Notes: generated from the letters alone by a model not told the origin. 64,000 nt of DNA from Deltaproteobacteria bacterium (GCA_019310485.1 JAFDEF010000004.1:35890-99889), one strand, 5' to 3'. Shown: positions 1,618 through 18,935, counted from the first letter of the stretch. A program made the numbers and translations.

Positions 1618-2754
1618 TCATTTTTCAACCACAGATGGATCCTGAACCCTTACCGGTTTTGCCTGTTTTCCGTATCCAAGAAACTGATCCATGAACACGA
1701 TAAAAGGTGTAAGGATATTCCTTTCAGCAAAGACCCTGACCATCCGATGAAGGAAGTTATTCGGCTTGTTCCACGGGCAGACCCTCACACAAACCGAGCA
1801 GTGGGTACCGTTCTTAACCCACCAATCGAAACATTTCATGGCATGGATCGGCCATTTCAGCATGCCGGGTGAATTGGAAACATCCCAAGCTTTATCTGTT
1901 CTTTCCCCTGTCATAAGAGCGCGGCTGGGGCAATACTTTGCGCACAGCTTACATTTCTCGCAAAATTTCTGGACTCCTATGTCCACGGGAGAATCCGGAA
2001 TCAAGGGCAGGTCGGTAAACACCTTGCTGATTCTAACTCTTGGCCCGAACTCCCTGGTGATAAGCTGTCCGCTTCGTCCCATCTCTCCCAGTCCTGCATC
2101 CACGGCCATGGGAATACTTATTCCGAGCTCATTAACTGCAGGAATGGCCTTGAACCCCAGCTCTGCAATAAAGGTGGCAAGGGAGCTGGCACACCAGGCG
2201 GCTTTCGAGTAACCGATGTCGGTTTCAGCCTCCACGTTCGGGGTGTACCGCATACCTTCATAATGCATTTCGCTGGCCAGCACAATCACCATCTTGTACT
2301 CGGGAGGGATTTCAATGGGGTCCCCGTCCCCGGCTGCATTCGTATACATCGCGTTGTGCAGGCCCCAGTGAGTGTAAATCCACAGAGGGTTTAACTTTGC
2401 AATACCCACAAGGTCTGCACCGATCCACAGCGCCGCCTCCTTGATAATCCTGGACATGGCCTGAGGATCGGGGTCTTTAAGCCTGTATTTCTTGTTGTAA
2501 ATGGGAGAAGTCTCTCTTGCCAGCGCGTTTTTCCTTAACAGATAGTCAACAGTACGCCCGGATACCCATCGTGCATGATCCAGGATCGTTTTTCCGGGAA
2601 TTTGCTTTGCGATATTCTCAACACTTCTTTTATGCATAAGGGTGTACTTGTCTGCTTCAACCGCGCCGCGGCTGAAACCCGTGTTGCGCTCGTCAAAACG
2701 GACAAGTTCCCCGGTAATATATTTTTTGTAAGTCGGTTCTTTTACTTTTCTCAT
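1618..2754 (-). CDS. Reductive dehalogenase (RdhA) family homologue, cytoplasmic type (no TAT signal), paralogue 1
   Basis: 378 aa. C-terminal FCEKCKLCAKYCP ... C-x12-CSVCVRVCPWNK matches the RdhA two-cluster pattern, in which the second cluster has one distant Cys. The N-terminus MRKVKEPTYKKYITGELVRFDER lacks an RRxFLK twin-arginine motif. No RdhB-like anchor gene is adjacent. Confidence 0.75.
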   Translation of the reverse strand: MRKVKEPTYKKYITGELVRFDERNTGFSRGAVEADKYTLMHKRSVENIAKQIPGKTILDHARWVSGRTVDYLLRKNALARETSPIYNKKYRLKDPDPQAMSRIIKEAALWIGADLVGIAKLNPLWIYTHWGLHNAMYTNAAGDGDPIEIPPEYKMVIVLASEMHYEGMRYTPNVEAETDIGYSKAAWCASSLATFIAELGFKAIPAVNELGISIPMAVDAGLGEMGRSGQLITREFGPRVRISKVFTDLPLIPDSPVDIGVQKFCEKCKLCAKYCPSRALMTGERTDKAWDVSNSPGMLKWPIHAMKCFDWWVKNGTHCSVCVRVCPWNKPNNFLHRMVRVFAERNILTPFIVFMDQFLGYGKQAKPVRVQDPSVVEK

Positions 2755-2900: not shown

Positions 2901-4052
2901 CTACTCCAGCAATTTCCAGTTTCCATTGACCACTTTAACCATCACCACGGATTCTTTTGTCAGGCCATTGTGGTTGGTGGGGGAGTAATTGTAAGTGCCG
3001 ACCACGCCAACAAAGTTTTTGAGATTTTCGATATAGTCCCTGATCTTGGCTCGATCAGGCCCCACAGCCTTCAGGGCACTGATAGCAATCCTTATGGCAT
3101 CATGAGCGTTACCGCCGAACTTGCTCACATCGTGCTTGAACCTAGACTCGTAAGCTTTCTTGTATTTCATCAGGATCGGCTTTTGAGGATCTGAATCAGG
3201 GAGCTGGTCAGCGACGATCAATTTTGGAGAAGGGAAGATGATTCCCTCCCCTGCTTTTCCCGTCATTTGGAGAAATTTTTTCGATGCAGCGCCATGGCTC
3301 TGGTATAAGGGTATTTTCATTGCCAGCTGCTTCCAGTTCTTTGTCACTATTGCTTCCGTGGGACCAACCGTCCAGCAGATCAGGGCCTGAGCATCAGTTC
3401 TCTGGATTCGCGTCAACTGAGCGGTCATGTCGGAGTCTTTTGGACCAAATTTCTCATCAGCCACCACCTGGATTCCAAACTTGGGTGCCACCGCGATCAG
3501 TTGTTCCCGGCCACTGTCCCCAAAGCCGTTTGAGACAGTGATAATCCCTACCCTTTTGATGCCGACCTTGGTCATGTACTGGTAAATCCTGGTTACGACG
3601 TTGGTATCGGTCTGAACGGTGTTAAAAACCCATTTCTTTGGTGGCTGCACAATCTTTCTGCTTGCGCCAAGAGCTATGTGGGGAATTTTTGCCTTTTGCA
3701 CAATAGGAATCACTGCCAGCGCGGATCCGCTCGACATGGGCCCAAGAATGATGGACACCCTATCCTTTTTGATCAGTTTCTGCGCCAGGGTAACCGCCCG
3801 GGTGGGTTTACCCTCTGTATCATAGACGATCAGCTTGATAGGGTGGCCGTTTATGCCTCCGGCCTTGTTGACTTCATCTGCAATCATCACAAAAGTGTTT
3901 TTCCCGGGCTCCCCTAGAAAAGAAAGGCCTCCGGTAACTTCCATGATTGCTCCAATCCTGTAAGGCTGTGCAGCCATACTCGGCGGCACCAAGAAGCAAA
4001 ATGCCGCAAGCAGCGCAATCCCCATTGCCAGGTATCGTTGAATTGCTTTCAT
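2901..4052 (-). CDS. Periplasmic substrate-binding protein, LivK/type-I (Peripla_BP_6-like)
   Basis: ORF 2901..4103. I prefer the internal ATG at 4052 (MKAIQRYLAMGIALLAAFCFLVPPSMAAQPYRIGA), which has a signal peptide and is preceded by GGAGAGGAGG. Body has typical LivK-like motifs (GGINGHPIKLIVYDTEGKP). Confidence 0.85.
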   Translation of the reverse strand: MKAIQRYLAMGIALLAAFCFLVPPSMAAQPYRIGAIMEVTGGLSFLGEPGKNTFVMIADEVNKAGGINGHPIKLIVYDTEGKPTRAVTLAQKLIKKDRVSIILGPMSSGSALAVIPIVQKAKIPHIALGASRKIVQPPKKWVFNTVQTDTNVVTRIYQYMTKVGIKRVGIITVSNGFGDSGREQLIAVAPKFGIQVVADEKFGPKDSDMTAQLTRIQRTDAQALICWTVGPTEAIVTKNWKQLAMKIPLYQSHGAASKKFLQMTGKAGEGIIFPSPKLIVADQLPDSDPQKPILMKYKKAYESRFKHDVSKFGGNAHDAIRIAISALKAVGPDRAKIRDYIENLKNFVGVVGTYNYSPTNHNGLTKESVVMVKVVNGNWKLLE

Positions 4053-4278
4053 AAATTTCCTCCTCTCCCTGATTGTATTGTTTGTTTCGGCGAATGCTAT
4101 CATATTTACTAGGGAATAAACCTTACCCTTTTGGCGGTAATTCTAGTTGCCAGCCCTACCTCTAGGGAAGCACAACAGGCTTGCGGACCGACTCCCAAGG
4201 CAAAAGGCTGCCTCCTTGTTGTTTCGTGGCTCATAGAGAGCTTTTTATAAATAAAAAGTAGCCTGAGTCAAGGTTTTT

Positions 4279-4296
4279 TTCACATTTTTCACATTT
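4279..4296. promoter_or_regulatory. Tandem 9-bp direct repeat TTCACATTT x2 in a divergent promoter region (candidate operator)
   Basis: Read directly: ttcacattt ttcacattt. It lies between the SBP gene (-) and the first XRE/cupin regulator (+). Function not established. Confidence 0.25.
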
Positions 4297-4367
4297 GGCT
4301 TGCTTTTTTTAAAAAATATTCAATAATATGAACACCCCCGGGTGAATCTAGCACTGGAGAGGCTCCC

Positions 4368-4955
4368 ATGTTGATGGTAAAAATTGGGACGAGAATAAAA
4401 GAAAATCGGTGGCGACAGGGTCTAACACTTAAGGATCTTTCAGAAAGATCAGGCCTTTCGGTGGGTCTTTTGAGTCAGATTGAGCGTGGAATTTCCTCCT
4501 CCAGCATCCGCAACATACAGAAGATTGTGAAAGGACTTGGTATCAGTTTTGCCAGTCTGTTTGATGACACTGATCCAGGTGAAAACGGTGCTCAGATGCA
4601 CCAAACATCCAGGAAAGGGATCCAAATTTCGGTCGTACGCGGTAAAAAGAGGAAAAAACTTCTCATGCCCTTTGGGGGTTTTATGGAGCTTCTCGCACCG
4701 GTTCACAATCACAAGATGGAATTTATCTTCCTTCGCTATCCGGTAGGAGCCAAAGTGAAGGAGCCATTTTCCCATGAAGGAGAAGAATGCGGTCTTGTAT
4801 TGAAGGGAAAACTTAAGGCTATTGTCGGTGATCAAGAATTCATCCTTGAGGCTGGTGACAGCATCTACTTTGACAGTACTATTCCTCACCGATGGGAGAA
4901 TATGGCCAAAACTGAAACCACGTTCATCTCAGCCCTCACACCCCCCTCATTGTAA
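4368..4955 (+). CDS. XRE-family HTH + C-terminal cupin transcriptional regulator (copy 1)
   Basis: 195 aa. The N-terminus ...RQGLTLKDLSERSGLSVGLLSQIERG is an HTH_3 motif. The C-terminal GDSIYFDSTIPHRWEN is a cupin motif. GGAGAGG lies upstream of the ATG. Confidence 0.85.
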   Translation: MLMVKIGTRIKENRWRQGLTLKDLSERSGLSVGLLSQIERGISSSSIRNIQKIVKGLGISFASLFDDTDPGENGAQMHQTSRKGIQISVVRGKKRKKLLMPFGGFMELLAPVHNHKMEFIFLRYPVGAKVKEPFSHEGEECGLVLKGKLKAIVGDQEFILEAGDSIYFDSTIPHRWENMAKTETTFISALTPPSL

Positions 4956-4985
4956 TCTCCGGGAGAGCCTTCCCTTTGTTTTTAG

Positions 4986-5014
4986 TTGACAAGTGGTTTA
5001 CTTTTGTTTACTAA
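4986..5014 (+). promoter_or_regulatory. Sigma70-like promoter candidate (TTGACA-17-TACTAA) with GTTTACT / TACTAA short direct repeats
   Basis: TTGACA at 4986-4991, a 17-nt spacer, then TACTAA at 5009-5014. GTTTACT occurs twice and TACTAA is tandemly repeated. Lies just upstream of the second regulator. Confidence 0.35.
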
Positions 5015-5054
5015 TACTAACCGATTTCAGGGTACTACCAGGGCCCTTTTGCAC

Positions 5055-5624
5055 ATGGAAAAAGAAATACAAAAAAGAATAAAGATGTATAGAAAAGACC
5101 GGGGCCTTACCCTTAGAGAGCTGGCTGAAAGGGCTGGGTGTACGCACTCCTATATTTCTCAGGTGGAAAAGGGAAAAAGTGTTCCATCTCTATCCATGGT
5201 GGGAAAACTTGCTTCCGCCCTTGAAGTTAGCGTGGTGGACCTTCTTAACGGTCTGCCGGGGGTAGAAGACAAAGGCGAATGGTATCTGAGCAAAAATGAT
5301 CGAAAAACAATAAATTATCCTGACGGCAAAGTTTCAAGCCAACTTCTGGTACCCCGGATTACAACCAGAAAGATGGAACCATTGATAAGTACAATAAAGC
5401 CTGGGGGCAGCTCTGATGCTGCCGAGGGGATGAATCACCCCCCTGGGACCGAGGAGTTTGTTTTCTTGATAAAAGGAGAGCTTGATTTTGCCGTAAACGG
5501 AAAGGAGATTCACCTAAAGGAGGGTGATACTCTCAGTTTTGACGGAAATCTGCCGCATAGCTGGGTGAACAGCAGCGGCAAAACAGCGGTGGTCCTTTTT
5601 GTGTTTACTCCACCCATATGGTGA
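5055..5624 (+). CDS. XRE-family HTH + cupin transcriptional regulator (copy 2)
   Basis: ORF 4986..5624. I prefer the ATG at 5055 (MEKEIQKRIKMYRKDRGLTLRELAERAGCTHSYISQVEKG). The C-terminus has a cupin motif (GDTLSFDGNLPHSWVN). Confidence 0.85.
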   Translation: MEKEIQKRIKMYRKDRGLTLRELAERAGCTHSYISQVEKGKSVPSLSMVGKLASALEVSVVDLLNGLPGVEDKGEWYLSKNDRKTINYPDGKVSSQLLVPRITTRKMEPLISTIKPGGSSDAAEGMNHPPGTEEFVFLIKGELDFAVNGKEIHLKEGDTLSFDGNLPHSWVNSSGKTAVVLFVFTPPIW

Positions 5625-5657
5625 GATGTGACCGGAAACAGAGGGGTAGAAGAAGTT

Positions 5658-8030
5658 ATGGAACAAAGAGTATTTTCGACCATAGGCAAGGTAACCAGAC
5701 GCAAGGAAGGGATAGCTCGGGTAACAGGAAAGGAAGTTTTTTCCTCAGATGTGACACTTCCAGGCATGCTGTTTGCGAGAGTACTCAGGAGCCCTTATCC
5801 GCATGCAAAGGTCCTTTCAGTGGACACGGAGGAAGCGGAGAAGATGGGCGCGATCTGTGTTACGCCCGATGAGGTACCCCAGATTCGCTATAACGAGAGG
5901 CAGGTAAGCATTCCTTCAAAGACCTACCGCGACAGGACCGTGTTGCCAGAGGTGGTCAGGCATGTGGGTGAAGGCGTTGTTGGAGTGGCAGCCAGGACGG
6001 AAGCGCTTGCCGAGGAGGCGGTCAGGCGAGTTAAGGTTGAATGGGAAAGACTGCCTGCCGTTTTTGATCCCTTTGAGGCAATGAAAGAGGGGGCCCCTGC
6101 TGTCCATGAGGATGTAATGCTGGGGGATGTCAGGCTTCCTATTAAGAACAACATTGCCTGTGTGCGGGAAGTCAGCGAAGGGGATATTGAAGAAGGCTTT
6201 AGCATCGCTGATTTCATTGTGGAGGAGGAATTTCGAACAGGGAGAGCCTATCACACGCAGCTTGAAACCAAGGCGGTAGTCTGCCGCCCTGAACCTGACG
6301 GCGGCATCACCGTGTGGCCGACTGCCCAGTCCATCCATAACACAAGACAGCTCCTTGGTAGAATCTTCGATATCCCTTTGAGTAAAGTGAATGTCGTAAG
6401 AGTCCCTATTGGGGGTGCTTTTGGATCAAGTATTCAGATGAACACTGCTGTTGCCGTTTGCGCGGCTCTAGCACTCAAGGCAAAGAGGCCGGTAAAGCTT
6501 TGCCTGACCCGCGAAGAGGACATGTATGATCACTGCAAGTACCCCTCAATCATTAGGCTTAAATACGGGATCAAGAAAGACGGGACTATAACCGCAGGCG
6601 AGATGCAGACCGTTGTTGATATAGGGGCACATAATATTCAGGCATATCCGCTGCTGGGATGTATGGCAGGATGGTTTGTTTCTCTTTACAGAATGCCTCA
6701 CATGCACTTTCACGGGACGGCTGTTTATACAAACAAAGCGCCCGCATGCGCGATGCAGGGATACGGAAACCCACAGGTTTCTTTTGCAGTTGAAAGCATG
6801 ATGGATATCCTTGCAGAGAAGGTGGGCATGGACCCTGTTGATCTTCGCCTGAAAAACTATGTGGGACTTGGAGAAACATTCTGGGGCCAGGGACCCACGG
6901 TGCGATCCATCATCCGTAGCTGCGGGGTGGAGGAGATGCTTTCAAAGGGGAAAGAAAAGATAGGATGGGACAAACGGGGAAAGCCTGAAGAAAAAAGAGG
7001 AAGGTATCGCCGCGGTATTGGCGTGGGCAGGAGCTTTCATACTTCGGGAACAGGCGCTCCCATGCCCGGAGAGGTCATTGATTATTCCACGGCAATGGTA
7101 AAAGTTAATGAAGATGGCTCGGTTGATTACCTGACCGCTCTTATGTGTCACGGGGGCGGAACTCTTGAGGCAGGTGCAAAGATTGTCGCAGAGGTGATGG
7201 GTGTGCCGCTTGACAAAGTTGGGATTTCACCATCCGATACCAGGAGCACGGGGTATGATGTTTGTACCCATGCTACGCGAGGGGTTTACTGCGGAGGGGC
7301 TGCAATAAAGAAGGCGGCGGAGTCGGCAAAAAAGATCCTGCTGGAGTTTGCTTCCCGGCTGCTGGAAGTTAATCCGGATGCGCTTCAAATAAGGCCTGAC
7401 GAAGAGCTGGGCCAGGGAGTGATATTTCTTGAGGGTGCGAAAGACAAAGCCATAACAGTGGGGGAAGTGGCAAAGACCGCCCAGTTGAAGGGCTGGGGTA
7501 CAGCCATAGCTGTAGAAAGCCACAGGCAGGTGAACTGCCCCCCATGCTTTGTCACTAACTTTATAGAAGTGGAGGTGGATACTGAAACAGGGAACGTAAG
7601 GCCAACCAGGGCCGTGGCCGCCGTGGATGCTGGAACGGTCATTAACCCTGACCTGGCTGCCGGTCAACTGGAAGGGGGACTCTGCCGCGGGATTGGTCTG
7701 GCTCTTCTCGAGGATACTGACTATGACAGGGATACAGGAGAGCTCACGTGCGGCGCCAGCCTGGTAGACTATAAGACATATACTGCTGTTGACATGCCTT
7801 TTGTGGATGATCTTGAAGCCTTTTTTGCCAATACATATGAGCCTTCAGGTCCTTTTGGGGCAAAAGGTGTGGGGGAGGCTGCCAACAACTGTACTGCCGG
7901 CACAGTGGCCAATGCCGTTTACAATGCAATTGGGATTCGTTTCAAAGAAGCACCCATCACGCCGGAAAAGGTTTTAAAAGCCTTGAAAGAAAATGGCGCA
8001 GCAAAAAGGAGAGCTGAAAGAAATGATTAA
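5658..8030 (+). CDS. Xanthine dehydrogenase/aldehyde oxidase-family molybdopterin-binding large subunit (L1)
   Basis: About 790 aa. N-terminal a/b-hammerhead-like region (GKVTRRKEGIARVTGKEVFSSDVTLPGMLFARVLRSPYPHAKV). Also GGAFGS and a C-terminal GAKGVGEA motif. The ATG at 5658 follows GAGGGG; an alternative start at 5628 is possible. Confidence 0.9.
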   Translation: MEQRVFSTIGKVTRRKEGIARVTGKEVFSSDVTLPGMLFARVLRSPYPHAKVLSVDTEEAEKMGAICVTPDEVPQIRYNERQVSIPSKTYRDRTVLPEVVRHVGEGVVGVAARTEALAEEAVRRVKVEWERLPAVFDPFEAMKEGAPAVHEDVMLGDVRLPIKNNIACVREVSEGDIEEGFSIADFIVEEEFRTGRAYHTQLETKAVVCRPEPDGGITVWPTAQSIHNTRQLLGRIFDIPLSKVNVVRVPIGGAFGSSIQMNTAVAVCAALALKAKRPVKLCLTREEDMYDHCKYPSIIRLKYGIKKDGTITAGEMQTVVDIGAHNIQAYPLLGCMAGWFVSLYRMPHMHFHGTAVYTNKAPACAMQGYGNPQVSFAVESMMDILAEKVGMDPVDLRLKNYVGLGETFWGQGPTVRSIIRSCGVEEMLSKGKEKIGWDKRGKPEEKRGRYRRGIGVGRSFHTSGTGAPMPGEVIDYSTAMVKVNEDGSVDYLTALMCHGGGTLEAGAKIVAEVMGVPLDKVGISPSDTRSTGYDVCTHATRGVYCGGAAIKKAAESAKKILLEFASRLLEVNPDALQIRPDEELGQGVIFLEGAKDKAITVGEVAKTAQLKGWGTAIAVESHRQVNCPPCFVTNFIEVEVDTETGNVRPTRAVAAVDAGTVINPDLAAGQLEGGLCRGIGLALLEDTDYDRDTGELTCGASLVDYKTYTAVDMPFVDDLEAFFANTYEPSGPFGAKGVGEAANNCTAGTVANAVYNAIGIRFKEAPITPEKVLKALKENGAAKRRAERND

Positions 8031-8907
8031 CACCAGGATACTGACTCAAGAATTTGACTATTTTGCTCCTGAGTCAATAAAGCAGGTTGTTGAGCTGCTG
8101 GAAAGGCACGGAGAAGGGGCCAGGGTCATCGCAGGGGGGACAGACCTTATTAACCAGATGAAAGAGGAAAAGATGTCCCCCTCCTGCCTTGTAAACATCA
8201 TGAATGTTAAGGGCCTGCGCTACATCAAAGAGGATGAGGGACTTAGAATAGGAGCAGCAACAAAGCTCCGAGATGTGAGGGCTTACTGCTTTAAAAGCCG
8301 CTATGTTGCCCTATACGAGGCCATTTCCTCTTTAGGGAAGCCCCAGGTGTGGAATATGGGAACCATTGGGGGGAACCTCTGTAACGCCTCTCCTGCTGCT
8401 GACACTGCACCACCCCTGCTGGTTTTCAAAGCCCGTGTAAAACTTGTAGGCAAGGACGGAGAAAGGGAACTTTTGCTGGAGGATTTCTTTACAGGCGTTA
8501 ATAGCACTGTACTGCAGCCCACTGAATTGATGGTGGAAATTCACCTGGACCCTCCAGGTGATGGTGCGGGCAATGCTTTCCTGAAAGTAGCCAGGGTCGG
8601 AGCCGACATATCCAAGGTCAGCTGCGCGGTTTTTTTGAAAAGGCAGGGCCGGACTTGCACGGAGTGCAGGGTCGCCCTCGGTGCAGTAGCGCCTGTGCCT
8701 ATGAGGGTGAAGGTGGTCGAGGAAATGATTGAGGGTCGAGAAATTGAGGAATCTTTAGTGGCAAAGGCTAGCGAGATTGTTTCAGAGGAAGTTAAGCCGA
8801 TTGACGATATCAGGTCAAGTGCAGAGTACAGGAGACAAGTTGCCGCAGTGACTTTCAGGGATGTATTTTGGAAAGCCTGGGATCGGGCAATTGGAGGGAA
8901 AAATTGA
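8023..8907 (+). CDS. FAD-binding medium subunit of Mo-hydroxylase (CoxM/XdhB-like, M1)
   Basis: ARVIAGGTDLINQMK and GTIGGNLCNASPAADTAPPLL are the FAD_binding_5 signatures. The ATG at 8023 overlaps the L1 stop by 8 nt (ATGATTAA). Confidence 0.9.
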   Translation: MINTRILTQEFDYFAPESIKQVVELLERHGEGARVIAGGTDLINQMKEEKMSPSCLVNIMNVKGLRYIKEDEGLRIGAATKLRDVRAYCFKSRYVALYEAISSLGKPQVWNMGTIGGNLCNASPAADTAPPLLVFKARVKLVGKDGERELLLEDFFTGVNSTVLQPTELMVEIHLDPPGDGAGNAFLKVARVGADISKVSCAVFLKRQGRTCTECRVALGAVAPVPMRVKVVEEMIEGREIEESLVAKASEIVSEEVKPIDDIRSSAEYRRQVAAVTFRDVFWKAWDRAIGGKN

Positions 8908-9371
8908 ACAAGCGAAAAGTAACCTTCACTGTAAATGGAGAGAGACATGAGCTCGTGGTTGAGCCTAATGAGCTTTTGCTCAATGTGCTTAGAGAAAAGC
9001 TGGGGCTAACCGGAACAAAGTATGCCTGCGGCAAGGGCCAGTGCGGGGCTTGCACCGTTTTGGTTAATGGGGAATCTTTCTTAAGCTGCTTGACGCTGGC
9101 AGTTGCTGTTGATGGGGCGGAGATCCGTACAATAGAAGGCGTGGCTGAACCAGACGGCACTCTTGACCCAATTCAGGAGGCTTTTCTTGACAGCAGCGCT
9201 ATTCAATGTGGTTTTTGTACGCCGGGGATGGTCCTAATGGGCAGAGAGCTCCTGAATAGAAATCCGCGAGCCACAGAGGAAGAAATCAGAGAGCAGATCA
9301 AGGGCAACCTGTGCCGGTGCACTGGTTATTTTAGCATTGTCAGAGCCATAAAAAGCTGCTGCGAAAAATAA
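8904..9371 (+). CDS. [2Fe-2S] small subunit of Mo-hydroxylase (CoxS/XdhC-type, S1)
   Basis: CGKGQCGACTVLVNG plus CGFCTPGMV...CRCTGY are the two 2Fe-2S motifs. The likely TTG start at 8904 follows GGAGGG and overlaps the M1 stop (TTGA). The ORF-track ATG at 8868 is an alternative. Confidence 0.88.
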   Translation: MNKRKVTFTVNGERHELVVEPNELLLNVLREKLGLTGTKYACGKGQCGACTVLVNGESFLSCLTLAVAVDGAEIRTIEGVAEPDGTLDPIQEAFLDSSAIQCGFCTPGMVLMGRELLNRNPRATEEEIREQIKGNLCRCTGYFSIVRAIKSCCEK

Positions 9372-9397
9372 CTGTGATTGGAAGTGCACAATATTTA

Positions 9398-9474
9398 GGG
9401 GGGAAGGCAATGGATTTAGTGGTCAGCAGCCAGGGAGACTCGGAGCAGAAGAAATGCCCTTCCCCATTTTTATT
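9398..9474 (+). terminator. Possible terminator-like structure between the two Mo-hydroxylase gene sets
   Basis: GGGGGGAAGGCA (9398-9409) can pair with TGCCCTTCCCC (9455-9465), giving 10 bp with one bulge, followed by ATTTTTATT. The 45-nt loop is atypical. Confidence 0.25.
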
Positions 9475-9536
9475 GAGCTATTAGCAGCTATGATGTATAG
9501 GGCTTTTTTCCGGCGTTGAAAGGAGAAACCGCTAAA

Positions 9537-10421
9537 ATGATTGAGGCAGAGTACGTGGCCCCTTCAAATCTTGGGGAACTTTTTAAGTCCATTGAAGGCA
9601 GGGCCGAAAGGGTAAAATTTGTTGCAGGCTGCACAAACGTGTTGCCCGACTTGCGAGCGCAAAATCCAGCCCCGATGCTTTTGGTTGATTTAACCGGAAT
9701 AGAGGAGCTGCGCCGAATAGAAGAAAACAACGGTGTAATTTCCATAGGCTCACTGGCCACAATGACTGAACTCGCCGCATCTGAGATCATCAGGACCCAT
9801 GGCCCGATTCTCGCCTCAGCCGCAAGGGCCTTGGGCAACCCGCTGACGCGAAACAGGGCAACCATTGGTGGAAATATTGCAGATGCATCTCCTGCAGCTG
9901 ATACTGCGCCCCCACTGCTTGCCCTTGAAGCAACGATCCATACTGAGGGAGCCAGCCATGCAAAAAGGGAAATCCCTGTGGAGGAATTTTTCATTGGCCC
10001 CAACCAGACCGTGCTGAACCAGGGGGAACTTATTACACGGATCACTTTCCCAATACCAAAAGACCCCTCTGCCTCCAGCCATATCAAATTCGGCCTCAGA
10101 AATGCGATGGCTATCTCAGTGGTATCAGTGGCTGTTGTACTTGAAATGCAGGGGAATTTGTGCCATAGGGCACGAATTGCCCTGGGATCAGTGGCACCTA
10201 AGCCGATTCGAGCTTATCTGACAGAAAAAGAACTGGAGGGGAGAAAGATCACTGAGGAAGTTCTTGAAAGCTGCGCGGAAGTTGTTAAGAAGGAGATTTC
10301 TCCAATAACTGATATACGTGCTTCCGCACAGTACAGAGAGCATGTTACCGGCGTGCTTCTTAAGAGGGCACTTTGGCAAGCCGCCAGAGAAGGAGAGAAT
10401 AGTACAAATGGCAACATATAA
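9537..10421 (+). CDS. FAD-binding medium subunit of Mo-hydroxylase (M2)
   Basis: VKFVAGCTNVLPDLR and ATIGGNIADASPAADTAPPLL motifs. The ATG at 9537 is preceded by AAAGGAGA. Confidence 0.9.
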   Translation: MIEAEYVAPSNLGELFKSIEGRAERVKFVAGCTNVLPDLRAQNPAPMLLVDLTGIEELRRIEENNGVISIGSLATMTELAASEIIRTHGPILASAARALGNPLTRNRATIGGNIADASPAADTAPPLLALEATIHTEGASHAKREIPVEEFFIGPNQTVLNQGELITRITFPIPKDPSASSHIKFGLRNAMAISVVSVAVVLEMQGNLCHRARIALGSVAPKPIRAYLTEKELEGRKITEEVLESCAEVVKKEISPITDIRASAQYREHVTGVLLKRALWQAAREGENSTNGNI

Positions 10422-10881
10422 ACTTGAACTTAAGTTGAACGGAGAAAAGCTTAGTGCGCAGGTCCTTGCCCATGAAAACCTTTTGAGTGTAATGAGGAAC
10501 AAGCTTGGAGCCAAGGAAGTAAAGAACGGTTGCAATAAGGGAGACTGTGGAGCATGCGCCGTGCTGCTGGACGGGAAAGCTGTAAATGCCTGTCTTACGC
10601 TTGCCTTGCAGGCCAATGGCAAAGAAGTGACCACGGTCAAAGGTATAGGAACAGAGGATCAGCCCCATCCCCTTCAAGAAAGCTTTGTGAGGCACGGCGC
10701 CATACAGTGCGGATTTTGCACTCCCGGTATGATAGTCTCCTCCAAAGCGCTTCTTGACACGATTCCAAACCCGGACAGGAGGCAAATCAGGGAGGGGATT
10801 TCAGGAAACCTATGCAGATGCACCGGTTATAACAAAATTGTGGAAGCCATCGAGGATGCTGCTCTTAAAAGGAAATCATAA
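10408..10881 (+). CDS. [2Fe-2S] small subunit of Mo-hydroxylase (S2)
   Basis: MATYKLELKLNGEK..., CNKGDCGACAVLLDG, CGFCTPGMI, CRCTGY. The ATG at 10408 overlaps the M2 3' end by 14 nt. Confidence 0.9.
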   Translation: MATYKLELKLNGEKLSAQVLAHENLLSVMRNKLGAKEVKNGCNKGDCGACAVLLDGKAVNACLTLALQANGKEVTTVKGIGTEDQPHPLQESFVRHGAIQCGFCTPGMIVSSKALLDTIPNPDRRQIREGISGNLCRCTGYNKIVEAIEDAALKRKS

Positions 10882-10899
10882 ACTAAGCGGAGATAAGAC

Positions 10900-13212
10900 G
10901 TGAAAAAGGATCCAAAAGACCAACTATCAAATTATGAGTACCAGTTTATAGGCAAGCCTGTGCCCCGCCATGATGCATGGGACAAGGTTTTTGGCAGGAC
11001 GAAGTATGCAGATGATTTTGATATGCCTGGCATGCTTTTTGGGAAGGTACTTAGAAGTTCTTATCCAGCTGCAAAGATCCTTTCTATCGATACTTCCGGG
11101 GCGGAAAAGATGCCCGGAGTGGCCGCAGTTTTGACGGCAAAGGACGTTCCCAACAATGAGACAGTTACTCGATTTGGCCAGACTCACCAAGTAGGAGGAT
11201 TTGAAGGCCTGTACAGGGTTCTAGCAGATAAGAAAGTAAGGTTCATGGGAGAGGCAGTGGCGCTGGTGGCTGCGGAGACTGAGGAGATTGCCGAAGAGGC
11301 TCTGGCGCGTATCAAAGTGGAATACGAGCAGTTGCCAGGAGTATTTGATCCGCTGGAAGCAATGAATCCAGATGCATATCAGGTGGGGGAGGGAGACAGC
11401 AACATTATCTGCAACTACCAGGTCAGAAAAGGAGATGTGAAAGAGGGATTTTCCCGTTCGCATGTTGTTGTTGAGAATACCTACAGGGTCCCCTTTGTTG
11501 AACATGCTTTCTTGGAGCCTGAATCAGGAATCGCCTGGATTGATGATAGCGAGATCATCACTATCCGTGTCTCCACCCAGGTAATCGAGCATTTTAGAGA
11601 CGTGGCGGATGTGCTTGGGATCCCACACAACAAGGTGAGGGTGATTGCCCCGATGGTGGGAGGAGGGTTTGGTAGCAAGGAAGACATCACGGTTGAGACC
11701 TTTTTGGCGCTTCTAACCTGGAAAACCGGTAAGCCTGTGAAAATGACGTGGACAAGAGAGGGGTCAATAATCTCCTCCAGCAAGCGGCATCCTTACGTCA
11801 TGAAATACAAAACAGGAGCAACAAGGGACGGCAAGTTGATGGCTATGGAGGCGCAGTTGATCTCAGATGCCGGAGCGCATGTTTATTTAAGCCCCTGGGT
11901 TCTCCTTTATTCTACTGTTGATGCCACGGGCCCCTACGATATTCCCAATGTCAAAGTAGATTCTTACACCGTGCTTACGAACAATACTTTCACGAGCGCA
12001 AATCGAGGCTTTGGCGCTCCACAGGTCTGCTTTGCTTATGAATCTCAGATGGATGAGCTGGCCAGGAGATTAAGCCTCTCCCCGCTTGAAATACGCAAGA
12101 GGAATTATCTCCGAAAAGGGGATGCGCTGGCCACAGGTAGGGTGCTGGAATACGGAGTTGAGACGGAAAAAACCGCGATAAAAGCACTTGAGGCCCTTGG
12201 GGAACCTTCGATGCCTTCGTCTCCCACGGAGAAAATCGGCCAGGGCCTGGCATCCGGCATGATGAGTTACGGCAGGATGACTTTTCTTCACGACACTTCG
12301 CGATCTTACGTTGGGATAGAACTGGATGGAAGCGTTACTGTCAGGTGCGGGGTGCAGGATATCGGGGGCGGCCAGGCATCATCTCTGGCATCCATTGCCG
12401 CTGAAATTCTTGGTGTACCCATGGAAGAGATCAAGGTGTTTATTGGGGATACAGCGCTCACTCCAATAGCAGGAACGACGACGGCCACAAGGATGCTTTA
12501 CATGTCCGGGAACGCCACCCTTAAGGCCGCCACGGAAGTTAAGAAAAGTCTTTTGCCCAAGGCAGCGGAAATGCTGGAGGCCAGTCCTGAGGACCTGGTT
12601 TTCAGAGACAAGAAGGTTTTTGTAAGAGGAGCGCCTGCAAGGGCTATACCGCTTGCAGATGTGGTAAAAGCCTGTGCCGCAGATGGAGTGCAGCTTTACA
12701 ATGTAGCTCAGTTTAATGCGCCGTTTAGAGAGCTGATTGACTTTAAAACGGGTCAGGGCCAGGTTTTCCCTGATTTTACATTTGGATCCCATGCCGTGGA
12801 AGTGGCTGTTGATACCGAGACAGGGAAAGTGAGGGTGCTAAAGCTGGTAGCGTGCTACGATGTGGGCCAGGCTATTAACCCCCTTAGTGCTGAGGGGCAG
12901 ATTGAAGGAGGTGCCCTTTATGGTCTTGGGTATGCCCTCACAGAGGAAGTGATCCTGGACAAAGGCATCACGCTCACCCCTTCGTTTTCCGAGTACCTGG
13001 TTCCCACATCAGTGGACGCACCTCATGTCAAAACAATCATGCTGGAGTCAAGGGATGGAGCAGGACCTTTTGGTGCAAAAGGAATAGGGGAACCATCGTG
13101 CAACTCCATTGCACCCGCAGTGGCTAATGCAGTGGCCAATGCCATAGGAGCAAGGATTTTGGACCTTCCCCTGACGCCTGAAAAGATACTCAGGTCCCTG
13201 CAGAAGCTCTGA
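10900..13212 (+). CDS. Xanthine dehydrogenase-family molybdopterin-binding large subunit (L2), xanthine-dehydrogenase-like active-site residues
   Basis: 770 aa with a GTG start. It carries GGGFGSKE, NRGFGAPQ and GAKGIGEP. From memory these align with bovine XDH GGGFGGKE(Glu802), FR(880)GFGGPQ and the catalytic Glu1261 motif. Confidence 0.9.
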   Translation: MKKDPKDQLSNYEYQFIGKPVPRHDAWDKVFGRTKYADDFDMPGMLFGKVLRSSYPAAKILSIDTSGAEKMPGVAAVLTAKDVPNNETVTRFGQTHQVGGFEGLYRVLADKKVRFMGEAVALVAAETEEIAEEALARIKVEYEQLPGVFDPLEAMNPDAYQVGEGDSNIICNYQVRKGDVKEGFSRSHVVVENTYRVPFVEHAFLEPESGIAWIDDSEIITIRVSTQVIEHFRDVADVLGIPHNKVRVIAPMVGGGFGSKEDITVETFLALLTWKTGKPVKMTWTREGSIISSSKRHPYVMKYKTGATRDGKLMAMEAQLISDAGAHVYLSPWVLLYSTVDATGPYDIPNVKVDSYTVLTNNTFTSANRGFGAPQVCFAYESQMDELARRLSLSPLEIRKRNYLRKGDALATGRVLEYGVETEKTAIKALEALGEPSMPSSPTEKIGQGLASGMMSYGRMTFLHDTSRSYVGIELDGSVTVRCGVQDIGGGQASSLASIAAEILGVPMEEIKVFIGDTALTPIAGTTTATRMLYMSGNATLKAATEVKKSLLPKAAEMLEASPEDLVFRDKKVFVRGAPARAIPLADVVKACAADGVQLYNVAQFNAPFRELIDFKTGQGQVFPDFTFGSHAVEVAVDTETGKVRVLKLVACYDVGQAINPLSAEGQIEGGALYGLGYALTEEVILDKGITLTPSFSEYLVPTSVDAPHVKTIMLESRDGAGPFGAKGIGEPSCNSIAPAVANAVANAIGARILDLPLTPEKILRSLQKL

Positions 13213-13238
13213 ACGATTTAGCCTGAAGGGGGTTAGAT

Positions 13239-14183
13239 ATGAAGTCAAGTTTGACCGTCTTGGCTATAGGCGGTAATTCTCTAATAAAGGACAGGAAAAG
13301 CGTTGCCCTCCAGGACCAGTACGAGGCAGTCAAGGAAACAACTCGGTATATTGCAGACCTTATTGAAAACGATCTTAATATTGTGATAACTCATGGAAAT
13401 GGCCCCCAGGTGGGTTTTATTTACAGGAGGGGAGAACTGGCTCAACATGAGCTACCGCTGATACCTCTGGATATCTGTGGTGCAGATACCCAGGGGGCTA
13501 TTGGCTACATGATTGAGAAAGCGCTTCTAAACGAACTTCGCAAAAGAGGAGTTGAAAAAAGAATTACTGCTCTGGTAACAATGACCCTTGTTGACAGGGA
13601 TGACAGCTCTTTTCAAAACCCAACAAAGCCGATCGGGTCCTTTATGCCAAGGGAAAAGGCGCTTGCCAACAAGGAGCAGTTTGGGTGGGATATAGCGGAG
13701 GATGCAGGCAGAGGCTTCAGGCGTGTTGTGCCTTCCCCGATCCCCAGAAAAATAATAGAACTGGATGCTATTAAAACCCTTCTTGAAAAAAACTATGTTG
13801 TAATTGCTGCCGGGGGTGGCGGGATCCCTGTAATCAAAAATGACGCAGGGGATCTTGAGGCTGTAGAAGCTGTTATTGATAAAGACCTGGGGTCTTCTCT
13901 TCTGGCCAGAAACCTGGGTGCTGATACGTTCATAATTTCAACCTCGATTGATGCGGCATACCTTAATTTCGGACAGGAAAACCAAGAGCCCCTCAGGCAT
14001 GCCACACTTTCGGACATGAAGGAATATCTTGAGCAGGGACATTTCAAGCCCGGCTCCATGAAGCCGAAGGTCGAATCAATCGTTCAGTTCCTTGAAGGTG
14101 GTGGGAAAAGGGCGATTATCACTTTACCTGAAAACCTGCTAAAGGCGGTGAACGGGGAGTGCGGAACAACGATCACGGCTTAG
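13239..14183 (+). CDS. arcC: Carbamate kinase
   Basis: 314 aa. VLAIGGNSL... and ITHGNGPQVG are amino-acid-kinase-fold carbamate kinase signatures. AAGGGGIPV is also present. Confidence 0.9.
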   Translation: MKSSLTVLAIGGNSLIKDRKSVALQDQYEAVKETTRYIADLIENDLNIVITHGNGPQVGFIYRRGELAQHELPLIPLDICGADTQGAIGYMIEKALLNELRKRGVEKRITALVTMTLVDRDDSSFQNPTKPIGSFMPREKALANKEQFGWDIAEDAGRGFRRVVPSPIPRKIIELDAIKTLLEKNYVVIAAGGGGIPVIKNDAGDLEAVEAVIDKDLGSSLLARNLGADTFIISTSIDAAYLNFGQENQEPLRHATLSDMKEYLEQGHFKPGSMKPKVESIVQFLEGGGKRAIITLPENLLKAVNGECGTTITA

Positions 14184-14231
14184 AAGTGACAAATACATAT
14201 GTGAACGGGTTGAGAGAGAAAGGAGCGAAAA

Positions 14232-15158
14232 ATGGGGTTTGAAGGAAGAGACATTCTTTCAACAGAGGATTTTACCAAGGATGAGATTCTGGAAATCATG
14301 GAAGTGAGTGCCAGGATGGAGGAACTGGCCAGAACAAAAGGCGTCTCCAACCTCCTCTCAGACAAGATTGTGGCAGTAATCTTTTTAGAACCTTCCACCC
14401 GTACCAGGCTTTCATTTGAAACAGCGATCAGGAGGCTTGGCGCAGGATGCATCACTGTGGCGGATGCAAAAACATCTTCAGCAGCCAAGGGTGAGACCCT
14501 TGCCGATACCGCCCGTACTATAGAAGGCTACGTGGACTGCATAATCGTGCGCCAGCCAATGATTGGGGGGGCCAAGTTGATGGCTGACGCTGTGAGTGTT
14601 CCTGTAATAAATGGAGGGGATGGCCCGGGCCAGCACCCAACCCAGGCACTCCTGGATCTTTATACGATTAAGAAAGAGACAGGCAGGCTTGAGCAGCTCA
14701 AGGTGGCAATGGTGGGTGATCTAAAGTATGGAAGAACCGTTCACTCACTTTCCTATGCGCTAGCCCCTTTTTTGCCGGAAAGATATATCTTTTGTGCTCC
14801 AGATGCCTTGCAAATGCCCAAAAATATTGTTGCGGACATGAAAGCAAAAGGTATCACCTGCCAGCAAACTTCCGGGCTTGAAGATGCCCTCGAGGCTGAC
14901 ATTCTTTACATGACGCGCATTCAAAGAGAACGTTTTGATAACCCGGCAGACTATGAGAAACTCAAGGGAAGCTACATCCTGACCCGCGAGATATTGGAAA
15001 AAGGCAACAAAGAGATCACCGTCATGCATCCCCTGCCAAGAGTGGATGAAATAAGCACGGATGTTGACGACCTACCCAATGCAGCCTATTTCAGGCAAGC
15101 CCATAACGGTGTGTTTCTGAGAATGGCTCTCCTGGCAATGATTATGGGCAGAGCATAG
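14232..15158 (+). CDS. pyrB: Aspartate-carbamoyltransferase-type (PyrB-like) transcarbamylase
   Basis: 308 aa with STRTR, HPTQ and HPLPRVDEI motifs. HPLPR is the ATCase type rather than the OTCase HCLP type. No pyrI or pyrC is adjacent; it sits directly after carbamate kinase. Confidence 0.75.
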   Translation: MGFEGRDILSTEDFTKDEILEIMEVSARMEELARTKGVSNLLSDKIVAVIFLEPSTRTRLSFETAIRRLGAGCITVADAKTSSAAKGETLADTARTIEGYVDCIIVRQPMIGGAKLMADAVSVPVINGGDGPGQHPTQALLDLYTIKKETGRLEQLKVAMVGDLKYGRTVHSLSYALAPFLPERYIFCAPDALQMPKNIVADMKAKGITCQQTSGLEDALEADILYMTRIQRERFDNPADYEKLKGSYILTREILEKGNKEITVMHPLPRVDEISTDVDDLPNAAYFRQAHNGVFLRMALLAMIMGRA

Positions 15159-15267
15159 AAGCGCATTTCAGCAAAGTTTATCCTTACCATTTTTCCGCTA
15201 CCGGAAGTAAGCCTCGCAGCCACTTTGGGCGTGGGAAAGAAAATTTGCGAAAAAAGGCAATTTTTTG

Positions 15268-15297
15268 TTGACAAAGATATATCATATATCATATATT
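15268..15297 (+). promoter_or_regulatory. Sigma70-like promoter candidate in an AT-rich repeat tract upstream of the GntR gene
   Basis: TTGACA at 15268-15273, then about 18 nt, then TATATT at about 15292-15297. It is embedded in atatcatatatcatatattatatt (iterated ATATCAT). Confidence 0.4.
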
Positions 15298-15396
15298 ATA
15301 TTTTGTATATTAAGAAATTTTTTCTCCAAGACCTATTATGGTGATATTATATGAAATAATCCTTTGGTCAGATCTTATTCAGTTTAGGGGTTTGCT

Positions 15397-16110
15397 ATGC
15401 AAAGTACCTTAAGAAACACTTCATTGACTACCGGTCTTGCGGTGAGCGGACAGCCGAAGCTTTACAAACAGATCTGGAAAGCGATTGCAGAAGGAATTAA
15501 GGAGGACATCATAAGTGGATATTACCGACCAGGAGACCGTCTTGTAGAGGCTGAATTGGCAGCCAAATATGATTCAAGCAAGACACCGGTGAAGGAGGCA
15601 CTGCGATATCTAAACGGCATCGGTTTCGTTGAGGTTGTGCCTTACAAAGGTGCGATTGTTACGAAAATGGACAAGAACGATGTTATCAGCCTTTACAAAA
15701 TTCAAAGCGTTTTAGAGGCATTGGCGGCGCGTGAGGCCCTTCCGAATCTTGGTAAAGCAGACTACGACAAAATGGAGACATATGCAGGCCTGCTAGAAAA
15801 TTACTACCGAGAGGGCAAGAAGGACAAATATGAGAAGGCTAACCTTATGTTTCATTCTGTTGTGTGGGGAGGTCTTGATAACAGAAACTTAATTGATCTA
15901 ATTATTACTATCCGGGAGAAGCTTCAGAGATATCGCCCAATAACTAGACGCTATCCGGAAAAATTCAAGGAGCTTGTCGCTGAGCATCGAAAAATGATTC
16001 ACGTTCTGAAAGAAAAGGACGTCAATAGGGCTGAGAAAATGGTCCGGAGACATTATGAAAAAAACGCTGAGATAATTGTCAGTATCTTGGAAAGGGAAGA
16101 TGGGTTTTAA
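15397..16110 (+). CDS. GntR-family transcriptional regulator (FadR/FCD-type C-terminal domain)
   Basis: 237 aa. YRPGDRLVEAELAAKYDSSKTPVKEALRYLNGIGFVEVVPYKGAIV is the GntR winged HTH. The C-terminus is helical. Confidence 0.85.
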   Translation: MQSTLRNTSLTTGLAVSGQPKLYKQIWKAIAEGIKEDIISGYYRPGDRLVEAELAAKYDSSKTPVKEALRYLNGIGFVEVVPYKGAIVTKMDKNDVISLYKIQSVLEALAAREALPNLGKADYDKMETYAGLLENYYREGKKDKYEKANLMFHSVVWGGLDNRNLIDLIITIREKLQRYRPITRRYPEKFKELVAEHRKMIHVLKEKDVNRAEKMVRRHYEKNAEIIVSILEREDGF

Positions 16111-16272
16111 AGATTCAAGGAGAGAGCTCTTTTTGCCTGTGTACTCTTTTGAAAGCCAGCCACAATTTTTTCTCTCTGCACTCATCAGTGCTGAAAGGAT
16201 ATGGATAAAGCTGTAAGGGAAGTGTAGGAAATTGAAATCAAAAATCATTTTTTCCAAAAGGAGGGAACGGAG

Positions 16273-18933: not shown

Positions 18934-18935
18934 GC

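Follow-up and report, generated by a model that had tools for sequence, protein, structure and literature searches.

Two uncharacterised molybdenum hydroxylases encoded in tandem in a deltaproteobacterial genome, and a possible shared route from a heteroaryl-acetate to aspartate

Why would a bacterium keep two complete molybdenum hydroxylases of the xanthine dehydrogenase (XDH) family side by side, and on what would they act? The question is raised by a 64,000-nt stretch of DNA from Deltaproteobacteria bacterium (GCA_019310485.1 JAFDEF010000004.1:35890-99889; hereafter the window), in which positions 5658-13212 encode two such enzymes, followed by carbamate kinase and aspartate carbamoyltransferase (ATCase). 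Each of the two hydroxylases represents an orthologous group of its own, so far uncharacterised, and in many anaerobes the two groups occur together as a module. Functionally, the explanation that we prefer, though with somewhat less than even confidence, is that both serve one route, from a heteroaryl-acetate to aspartate and ATP, as their genomic context suggests; the module most likely opens a catabolic pathway that leads to N-carbamoyl-aspartate, and ATP would be recovered here through ATCase and carbamate kinase.

The first-pass annotation of the window had described two complete XDH-family enzymes in tandem with permuted subunit order, and both points hold: all six open reading frames (ORFs) carry the full domain set of the family, with Pfam gathering scores passed and E-values of 1e-7 to 1e-80, and the junctions, read directly, give the order large-FAD-FeS for set 1 (L1-M1-S1) and FAD-FeS-large for set 2 (M2-S2-L2). 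The reported overlaps are likewise real, with 8 nt at L1/M1 (ATG 8023, stop 8030), 4 nt at M1/S1 (TTGA at 8904-8907, which includes the TTG start of S1) and 14 nt at M2/S2 (ATG 10408, TAA 10421); the sets themselves are separated by 165 nt (9372-9536), and an AAGGAG ribosome-binding site lies 11 nt 5' of the M2 start. The L1 and M1 starts (ATG 5658 and ATG 8023) are backed by the N-termini of orthologues, and automatic gene calls on sister contigs pick longer versions of both (GTG 5628 and ATG 7993). Each small subunit has the eight cysteines for two [2Fe-2S] clusters (positions 42, 47, 50, 62, 102, 105, 137 and 139 in S1). The two gene orders reflect two different ancestries, that of set 2 being the order of ndhFSLM and that of set 1 being the order of E. 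coli xdhABC. The large subunits do lie at the outer ends of the pair in this window, as had been remarked, but this is not a conserved trait: in at least nine related loci (L007, L031, L039, L044, L057, L060, L072, L074 and L092) set 2 precedes set 1 and the large subunits face inwards, and because the placement of the sets varies while their internal orders stay, the outer-end arrangement is incidental.

Evolutionarily, L1 and L2 are about 34% identical and fall in separate neighbour-joining clades, each with its own invariant active-site set, in agreement with the earlier expectation of two enzymes of different specificity class; they are old paralogues. Both large subunits stay under every NCBIfam equivalog cutoff, be it for XDH types, 4-hydroxybenzoyl-CoA reductase (4-HBCR), CO dehydrogenase, PaoC or others. 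For L1 and L2, respectively, the XDH scores are 491 and 526 for XdhA (NF043082, cutoff 780), 480 and 509 for PRK09970 (916), 344 and 544 for PucD (TIGR03196, 783.65), 226 and 339 for XdhB (TIGR02965, 849.5), and 286 and 523 for the Se-dependent XDH (TIGR03311, 830.45). Both share with the mammalian and Rhodobacter enzymes (1FO4, 1JRO) the three-module architecture and the equivalents of Glu1261 and Gln767, and L2 in addition Glu802, Arg912 and Phe914; unlike these enzymes, both are without Arg880 and Phe1009, L1 also without Glu802 and Arg912, at identities of 23-27%. Judged by sequence, neither is a classical xanthine dehydrogenase.

Of the enzymes with a solved structure, the nearest to L2 is the Se-dependent nicotinate dehydrogenase of E. 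barkeri (NdhFSLM, PDB 3HRD), with 320 bits to NdhL and 224 bits to NdhM and 42% identity in the catalytic region, versus 27% to bovine XDH, whereas L1 is about equidistant, at 29-31% identity to nicotinate dehydrogenase and to HcrA of 4-HBCR and 23% to bovine XDH. Set 2 and NdhFSLM have the FAD-FeS-large order in common, as well as the GGGFG-K, RGFG-PQ and GAKG-GEP motifs and the equivalent of NdhM Tyr13, and the Se-cofactor gene yqeB occurs in loci related to the window module. In contrast to the split NdhL and NdhM, however, L2 is one fused polypeptide, has Glu (Glu261) where the E. barkeri enzyme has Leu at position 802 and Tyr (Tyr337) in place of NdhL Arg319, carries an invariant Arg459/His464 pair, and has no nicotinate-fermentation genes nearby. 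An assignment of L2 as nicotinate dehydrogenase was rejected on the two replacements, the fusion and the neighbours, and L2 is better described as a nicotinate-dehydrogenase-like protein of a distinct orthologous group. HcrA (HcrABC, 1RM6) is the best single-chain PDB match of both large subunits (295 bits for L1, 383 for L2), at 29-32% identity. L1 was nevertheless rejected as a member of the 4-HBCR group: alpha-subunit scores are far under the cutoff (TIGR03194, 436 and 539 for L1 and L2 vs 994.55), as are those of M1 and M2 for the beta subunit (TIGR03195, 123 and 130 vs 404.55), and M1 and M2, with 294 residues each and six and three cysteines, are without the 4-HBCR-type [4Fe-4S] insertion.

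The active sites were compared with MAFFT (Table 1); the alignment took in bovine XDH, NdhL/NdhM, Desulfovibrio gigas MOP and HcrA besides 52 large subunits of set 1 and 32 of set 2. Bovine XDH 736-1285 was rebuilt from PDB alignments, and its numbering came out right at 12 of 12 known active-site residues (Gln767, Glu802, Leu873, Ser876, Arg880, Arg912, Phe914, Phe1009, Thr1010, Val1011, Leu1014 and Glu1261); gapless HMMER pairwise alignments (L2 against rat XDH, NdhL and D. gigas MOP; L1 against bovine XO) agree with it on the disputed columns. All motifs quoted in the first-pass annotation are present (GGGFGSKE and NRGFGAPQ in L2, GGAFGSSI and MQGYGNPQ in L1, GAKG[VI]GE in both). Its reading of the Glu of GGGFGSKE as bovine Glu802 is borne out, as is the statement that L1 has neither the Glu802 nor the Arg880 equivalent, and the catalytic Glu of both proteins aligns with bovine Glu1261 and with the Glu motif of NdhM, QorL and HcrA. 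The Arg of NRGFGAPQ, on the other hand, had been taken for Arg880 and is in fact bovine Arg912; Arg880 sits in SIMERALF, about 30 residues to the N-terminal side of the (A/N)(F/M)RGFG motif, in a column that also holds MOP Arg501 and NdhL Arg319. Since Arg912 is present in nicotinate dehydrogenase, D. gigas MOP and 4-HBCR too, it is no mark of purine specificity, and the remembered equation of FRGFG with Arg880 can mislead motif-based specificity calls.

Table 1. Active-site positions of bovine XDH and their equivalents in the two large subunits, with conservation among 32 set-2 and 52 set-1 orthologues
Bovine XDH	L2	L1	Remark
Gln767	Gln227 (32/32)	Gln224 (Gln in 51/52)	
Glu802	Glu261 (31/32)	Ile259 (52/52)	
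Leu873	Leu330 (31/32)	Gln328 (52/52)	
Arg880	Tyr337 (32/32)	Cys335 (40 Cys, 9 Val of 52)	
Arg912	Arg369	Gln367 (50/52)	
Phe914	Phe371	Tyr369	
Phe1009	Arg459 (32/32)	Thr465	
Leu1014	His464 (32/32)	Ile474 (41/52)	
Ala1078	Thr528 (32/32)	His538 (52/52)	
Glu1261	Glu731	Glu740	Catalytic Glu, invariant in both sets

The claim that the second enzyme keeps the xanthine-type substrate residues is accordingly not borne out: L2 has the Glu802 equivalent, but its invariant Tyr at Arg880 and invariant Arg at Phe1009 indicate that it is not of xanthine type. The phenylalanine pair that sandwiches purines (Phe914/Phe1009) is incomplete in L2 and absent from L1. Of the prediction of one purine-type enzyme plus one for a different substrate, the difference in specificity stands and the purine type does not. 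Each group has a signature of its own, kept in 40-52 of the 52 set-1 orthologues (Q224, I259, Q328, C335, Q367, H538, E740) and in 31-32 of the 32 set-2 orthologues (E261, Y337, R369, F371, R459, H464, E731). The invariant Arg459 and His464 in the substrate pocket of L2, together with its nearness to an enzyme for a heteroaromatic carboxylate (nicotinate), count in favour of a heteroaryl-carboxylate substrate.

Orthologues of L1 and L2 at 55-84% identity (69-84% for L2) occur under generic names in many phyla, both sets being found in Desulfobacterota, Aminicenantes, Acidobacteriota, Thermoleophilia, Spirochaetota, Caldisericota and others. Among species-representative genomes, L1 orthologues were found in Desulfobacterales, Desulfovibrionaceae, Aminicenantes, Acidobacteriota, Thermoleophilia, Pirellulales, Dehalococcoidia, Spirochaetota, Caldisericota and Burkholderiales, and in archaea in Hadarchaea, haloarchaea and Thermoprotei; two carriers are cultured, Desulforhopalus singaporensis DSM 12130 and Natrarchaeobius oligotrophus. 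The module of D. singaporensis, locus L007/L043, lies at NZ_FNJI01000019.1. For neighbourhood statistics, 61 non-redundant loci were compared by clustering of neighbour ORFs and family scans. Both sets share a locus in 33 of them, with the internal orders conserved and the relative placement variable. Set 1 can work independently of set 2, since it stands alone in most archaeal loci. Two of the loci stood out for other reasons. In L098 (10001-12808, JGI 3300032020) the small and large subunits of set 2 are fused into one protein of 935 aa (Fer2, Fer2_2 and Mo domains), with a domain order that resembles D. gigas aldehyde oxidoreductase. Just upstream of the hydroxylase module of L010 (3137-7796, GCA_964561845.1, a metagenome-assembled genome of Desulfobacterales) lies a set like a diversity-generating retroelement, with a reverse transcriptase (RVT_1), bAvd, an HRDC protein and two proteins with Peptidase_C14 and FGE-sulfatase domains, which are likely its targets.

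The neighbours that recur beside these hydroxylases are what point to a product. A bona fide ATCase adjoins set 1 in 15 of the 61 loci, this window included, in several phyla, and carbamate kinase adjoins the tandem in seven. Fifteen loci encode an amidohydrolase, Hyd, of the D-hydantoinase/dihydropyrimidinase type, in L010 for example at 20072-21421; it scores at the TIGR02033 cutoff and gives 280 bits against solved D-hydantoinases and 155 against dihydroorotases; a second amidohydrolase, AmhB, is present in eight loci, AroM and/or an amino-acid (aspartate-type) racemase in ten, and a PyrE-type orotate phosphoribosyltransferase (OPRT; 137.6 vs cutoff 106.8) in five. ATCase and AmhB exclude each other (15 loci with ATCase only, eight with AmhB only, none with both), and racemases accompany AmhB in all eight of its loci and ATCase in none of its 15, which together suggest two alternative ways of removing the carbamoyl group from one ureido acid. 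The same either/or, YgeW carbamoyltransferase or UacY amidohydrolase, is known from the reductive urate pathway (PMC12507026). The window ATCase matches the enzymes of M. jannaschii (340 bits) and E. coli (PyrB, 294 bits) and has all the motifs of a PyrB (STRTR, HPTQ, KYGRTVHS, TRIQRER, HPLPRVDEI). The lyase of L007 is an aspartase (AspA, 729 vs cutoff 681), with a homologue of 78% identity at the same position in L031, and the racemase of L092 is of the amino-acid/aspartate type (TIGR00035, 218 vs cutoff 93). These PyrB motifs, the aspartase and the Asp-type racemase make N-carbamoyl-aspartate the most likely ureido acid, and the neighbours as a whole (ATCase, aspartase, Asp-type racemase, D-hydantoinase) point to a product with the carbon skeleton of aspartate, which a purine could not supply. 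Maleate isomerase, considered for the Asp_Glu_race neighbour, is disfavoured because the L007 lyase passes the aspA and not the fumC cutoff; the L092 protein, moreover, matches the TIGR00035 and CuyB racemase models. YqeB, for Se-cofactor maturation, was found in 13 of the 61 loci by homology to the L007 protein (308-322 vs the TIGR03309 cutoff of 220 in L007 and L092); L093 encodes YqeC and XdhC, and MocA-type cytidylyltransferases occur there and in five other loci. At least one hydroxylase of the pair is probably selenium-dependent.

Chemically, these observations can be joined into one route, for which we infer the sharing of a single pathway, the direction of the carbamoyltransferase and the identity of the substrate. 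The two hydroxylases would act in succession on one N-heteroaromatic carboxylate, with oxygen from water. If this is imidazole-4-acetate, the likely substrate, hydroxylation at C2 and C5 would give 5-carboxymethylhydantoin (hydantoin-5-acetate), which a D-hydantoinase-type amidohydrolase, encoded in related loci and absent from this window, would open to N-carbamoyl-aspartate. In the variant found here, ATCase would run phosphorolytically, from N-carbamoyl-aspartate and phosphate to aspartate and carbamoyl phosphate, and carbamate kinase would turn carbamoyl phosphate into ATP, CO2 and NH3; in the other, the second amidohydrolase and racemases would free aspartate hydrolytically. On chemical grounds, an N-C(=O)-N unit would come to sit on an aspartate backbone only from a skeleton of imidazole-acetate or orotate type, and to our knowledge dihydroorotate and 5-carboxymethylhydantoin are the sole rings whose hydrolysis yields N-carbamoyl-aspartate. 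The route from imidazole-4-acetate would take two water-dependent hydroxylations (C2, C5) and need no reductase, and no annotated cluster holds a ring reductase of the dihydroorotate dehydrogenase type or any other.

Modules that would form arylacetates adjoin the tandem in several loci, in forms independent of one another. In L098 there are a HisC-type aminotransferase (TIGR01141, 332 vs cutoff 277), IorA/IorB (the alpha and beta subunits of indolepyruvate:ferredoxin oxidoreductase) and an acyl-CoA synthetase of the ADP-forming type; in L007, an aldehyde:ferredoxin oxidoreductase (AOR) stands with a class-III aminotransferase and an amino-acid permease; L044 and L097 have an AOR, L096 a short AOR fragment, and L008 a benzoylformate-decarboxylase-like thiamine pyrophosphate enzyme. 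Because of the ring chemistry, the missing reductase and these adjoining modules, we favour imidazole-4-acetate, from histidine or histamine, among the candidate substrates. The full proposal, an undescribed O2-independent pathway for it with two probably Se-dependent molybdenum hydroxylases, a hydantoinase and a catabolic ATCase with carbamate kinase, is tentative, and we rate it as somewhat unlikely in this specific form; anaerobes of sediments and the subsurface would have it widely, from Desulfobacterota to Aminicenantes, and archaea such as Hadarchaea would have set 1 by itself. Our literature search found no description of the twin-hydroxylase module or of such an imidazole-acetate pathway.

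Precedents exist for the parts. Aerobic histamine catabolism in Pseudomonas proceeds by imidazoleacetate monooxygenase through formiminoaspartate to aspartate, requires O2 and NADH, and opens the ring after one oxygenation. The proposed route would have in common with it the substrate, the end product and the front sequence of amine, aldehyde and acid, and would differ in its two water-dependent molybdenum hydroxylations, its hydantoin intermediate and its ATP recovery. Two distinct molybdenum hydroxylases act on one ring in Bacillus niacini, where two enzymes hydroxylate nicotinate in sequence, and anaerobic indoleacetate degradation (iaa genes) starts with a molybdenum hydroxylase and a hydantoinase-like enzyme, a precedent for heteroaryl-acetate hydroxylation and hydrolytic ring opening; both systems differ from the proposed route in substrates, downstream enzymes and products and are likened to it here by their chemistry. 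The reductive urate/2,8-dioxopurine pathway comprises XdhD or XdhAC, YgfK, SsnA, HyuA, YgeY, YgeW or UacY, YqeA and YgeX (bioRxiv 10.1101/2025.04.24.650524, PMC12507026). Its logic is that of the proposed route: a Se-dependent member of the XDH family attacks an N-heterocycle, ring opening by cyclic amidohydrolases yields ureido acids, and their ureido group is then lost either to an amidohydrolase or, with a gain of ATP, to a carbamoyltransferase paired with carbamate kinase.

Several points weigh against this reading. Everything beyond the enzyme family is drawn from gene neighbourhood, and the module of this window consists of regulators, the two hydroxylases, carbamate kinase and ATCase only: tblastn over the 64 kb gave no match to the hydantoinase, AmhB, racemase/AroM, OPRT or YqeB of related loci, nor to their aspartase, aminotransferases or AOR. 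Neither ATCase nor AmhB is present in 38 of the 61 loci, many of them short contigs; the window ATCase is not distinguishable by sequence from a biosynthetic PyrB; and the solitary set 1 of most archaeal loci also has to be accommodated. As to the substrate, three unrelated types of aminotransferase occur near the tandem, a neighbouring operon could account for the aminotransferase and AOR genes of Desulforhopalus, the arrangement of HisC, indolepyruvate:ferredoxin oxidoreductase and acyl-CoA synthetase was seen in a single locus family, and the OPRT fits a link with pyrimidines better than one with imidazoles. Our literature search found no characterised precedent for hydroxylation of a simple imidazole ring by an XDH-family enzyme.

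The alternative that survives best, although we think it unlikely, is that the neighbours are unrelated to the hydroxylases, with ATCase, carbamate kinase, OPRT and the hydantoinase-like protein belonging to pyrimidine biosynthesis or salvage, and the hydroxylases acting on another N-heterocycle or aldehyde (e.g., nicotinate-like), possibly in two separate pathways. The biosynthetic motifs of the ATCase, the kinship of L2 with nicotinate dehydrogenase, the 38 loci that have neither ATCase nor AmhB and the archaeal set-1 loci would all suit it. It would have to explain, though, why ATCase adjoins set 1 in lineages as different as Spirochaetota, Thermodesulfobacteriota, Thermoleophilia, a Desulfurococcaceae archaeon and the organism of this window, why ATCase and AmhB are strictly exclusive with racemases tracking AmhB, as alternative enzymes for one step would be and random neighbours would not, and why the same operons include genes for an aspartase and a protein of the Asp-racemase type; of the genes for nicotinate fermentation in E. 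barkeri, none was seen.

A pyrimidine-carboxylate route is, in our estimate, distinctly unlikely. Here the hydroxylases would make orotate or an analogue, to be converted through dihydroorotate to N-carbamoyl-aspartate and on by ATCase and carbamate kinase; OPRT would salvage some of the orotate, and the starting point would be a less oxidised pyrimidine-4-carboxylate. Orotate fermentation by Clostridium oroticum is the model for such a route, whose end (ATCase, carbamate kinase, aspartase) would be the same as in the explanation that we prefer, and the five OPRT genes stand beside ATCase, carbamate kinase and Hyd. Against it, the annotated clusters are without dihydroorotate dehydrogenase or another ring reductase, Hyd is far nearer to D-hydantoinases than to dihydroorotases, racemases would be needless for enzymatically formed L-dihydroorotate, and the arylacetate-forming modules are left unexplained; nor do we know of a natural source of partly oxidised pyrimidine-4-carboxylates.

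That set 2 is a xanthine or purine hydroxylase, set 1 an enzyme for another heterocycle or an intermediate, and the whole a purine-fermentation cluster that gains ATP via carbamate kinase, appears improbable. L2 does keep the equivalents of Glu802, Phe914, Gln767 and Glu1261, its top NCBIfam model is pucD (543.6 bits), Se-dependent purine hydroxylases exist and YqeB lies beside related loci, and carbamate kinase is part of the known anaerobic purine pathway. Yet Arg880 and Phe1009 are replaced by an invariant Tyr and an invariant Arg, L2 stays more than 230 bits short of every XDH equivalog cutoff, and it is far closer to nicotinate dehydrogenase than to bovine XDH. Unlike the 2,8-dioxopurine pathway, the window module has no YgfK-type reductase, SsnA, YgeX or YgeY (the window amidohydrolase at 23256-24722 scores 205 vs 444 for SsnA) and, in place of a knotted YgeW, a true ATCase (45-51 against 453-500); its large subunits differ as well (TIGR03313, 317-351 vs cutoff 1101.9), and the end product would be aspartate, not 2,3-diaminopropionate. 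ATCase, aspartase and the Asp-type racemase all require the four-carbon skeleton of aspartate, and purines do not have it. Equally improbable in our view is the idea that one set hydroxylates while the other dehydroxylates, as 4-HBCR and XdhD/DOPDH do, so as to shift a ring oxo group: HcrA is the best full-length PDB match of L1 and L2, an enzyme of the XDH family is now known to work reductively in the step from urate to 2,8-dioxopurine, and L1 lacks the otherwise near-universal Arg912, but M1 and M2 are without the HcrB [4Fe-4S] insertion, both large subunits keep the catalytic Glu, the neighbourhood of most loci offers no low-potential electron supply, and the direction of catalysis is not readable from sequence for either enzyme.

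Within the window, the hydroxylases form part of a compact locus with its own regulators (Table 2). Reg2 is the conserved regulator of the module, with orthologues of 48-71% identity directly 5' of L1 in 21 of the 61 loci and a start (ATG 5055) backed by gene calls on contig L003, whereas Reg1 is only 26-43% identical to regulators of related loci. An orthologue of the Liv-type substrate-binding protein (70% identity) lies just downstream of the tandem in L019, and Liv-type sets of substrate-binding protein, permease and ATPase flank it in L039, L072 and L092, a suggestive association; this transporter is possibly the substrate uptake system.

Table 2. Genes of the hydroxylase locus and its immediate surroundings in the window
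Feature	Position	Strand	Evidence and remarks
Liv-type ABC substrate-binding protein (Peripla_BP_6)	2901..4103	-	Pfam PF13458, 200.8 bits; divergent from cluster
Reg1, HTH_3 + cupin transcription regulator	4368..4955	+	Pfam PF01381 + PF07883; extra paralogue
Reg2, HTH_3 + cupin regulator, PuuR-like	5055..5624	+	Pfam; orthologues 5' of L1 in 21 of 61 loci
L1, molybdopterin-binding large subunit of set 1	5658..8030	+	PF01315 + PF02738 + PF20256
M1, FAD-binding medium subunit of set 1	8023..8907	+	PF00941 + PF03450; 294 aa
S1, 2x[2Fe-2S] small subunit of set 1	8904..9371	+	PF00111 + PF01799
M2, FAD-binding medium subunit of set 2	9537..10421	+	PF00941 + PF03450; 294 aa
S2, 2x[2Fe-2S] small subunit of set 2	10408..10881	+	PF00111 + PF01799
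L2, molybdopterin-binding large subunit of set 2	10900..13212	+	PF01315 + PF02738 + PF20256; 770 aa
Carbamate kinase	13239..14183	+	TIGR00746, 364.7 vs cutoff 358.25; NF009007, 391.9 vs 266
ATCase catalytic chain, PyrB-type, without PyrI	14232..15158	+	TIGR00670, 370.9 vs cutoff 236.95

At the RNA level, an Rfam scan of the whole window at gathering thresholds gave no RNA family and no molybdenum-cofactor riboswitch, and a promoter/terminator consensus scan of 4000-15500 gave nothing within the 165-nt gap between the sets, its counts being close to shuffle expectation. The gap does hold a long, imperfect hairpin (GGGGAAGGCA...TGCCCTTCCCC) with a T-run after it. When folded, the gap is no stabler than shuffled sequence (z = +1.6), so that, with the scan empty, there is no evidence for an attenuator or a separate terminator; across orthologous loci the gap ranges from 28 to 190 nt.

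The organism is represented by metagenome contigs, and comparison with sister contigs delimits the locus. An 11-kb block (15397-26207) is missing from L001, L004 and L005, where an oligoribonuclease follows ATCase directly; it carries a GntR regulator, an Opp/Nik-type ABC transporter, a reductive-dehalogenase-like Fe-S protein, an ATZ/TRZ- or SsnA-like amidohydrolase and a LarA-family racemase, and looks like a strain-variable insertion. Because three sister contigs are without it, we take the core to be the regulators, the two hydroxylases, carbamate kinase and ATCase. In the otherwise identical contig L002 (1-8854, JGI 3300033149), L1, M1 and ATCase are each broken into two ORFs, probably through sequencing or assembly frameshifts rather than as pseudogenes.

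Farther out, reductive-dehalogenase/QueG-like Fe-S proteins are encoded at 1618-2754 (-) and 21839-23179 (+; TIGR02486, 224 vs cutoff 160). Such proteins recur beside the tandem in L098 (2845-3984) and L008 (1-2252); the L098 orthologue, of 71% identity, lies directly 5' of the regulator, and relatives of 32-34% identity occur twice in the locus of marine Acidobacteria. At 27107-34336 (-) stands a large set of flavin/Fe-S genes, encoding a GltD/NfnB-like protein (492 aa), a NuoG/HoxU-like N-terminus fused to a PyrK/SudB-like FAD/NAD domain (841 aa) and a NuoF-GltD fusion (1039 aa), with a NuoE-like thioredoxin-fold protein after the set in L001. It could be an Nfn/Hnd-like electron-bifurcating complex and might act as the hydroxylases' redox partner, but other lineages do not keep it. 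A radical-SAM C-methyltransferase for the maturation of ribosomally synthesised and post-translationally modified peptides (46376-48241, -; TIGR03975, 396 vs cutoff 282) hints at a gene cluster for such a peptide nearby.

If the proposed route is correct, the pair would add two new substrate classes to the xanthine-oxidase family, marked by Ile/Gln/Cys/Gln/His in L1 and Glu/Tyr/Arg/His in L2, and would provide the first anaerobic fate for imidazole-acetate and histamine. It would also be the second case, after the 2,8-dioxopurine pathway, of ATP gained from a ureido intermediate, with an ATCase labelled 'biosynthetic' running in reverse. Regardless of the substrate, the generic names under which these widespread proteins are filed, 'xanthine dehydrogenase family' and 'CO/xanthine dehydrogenase Mo-binding subunit' among them, should not be taken for markers of purine catabolism in metagenomes.

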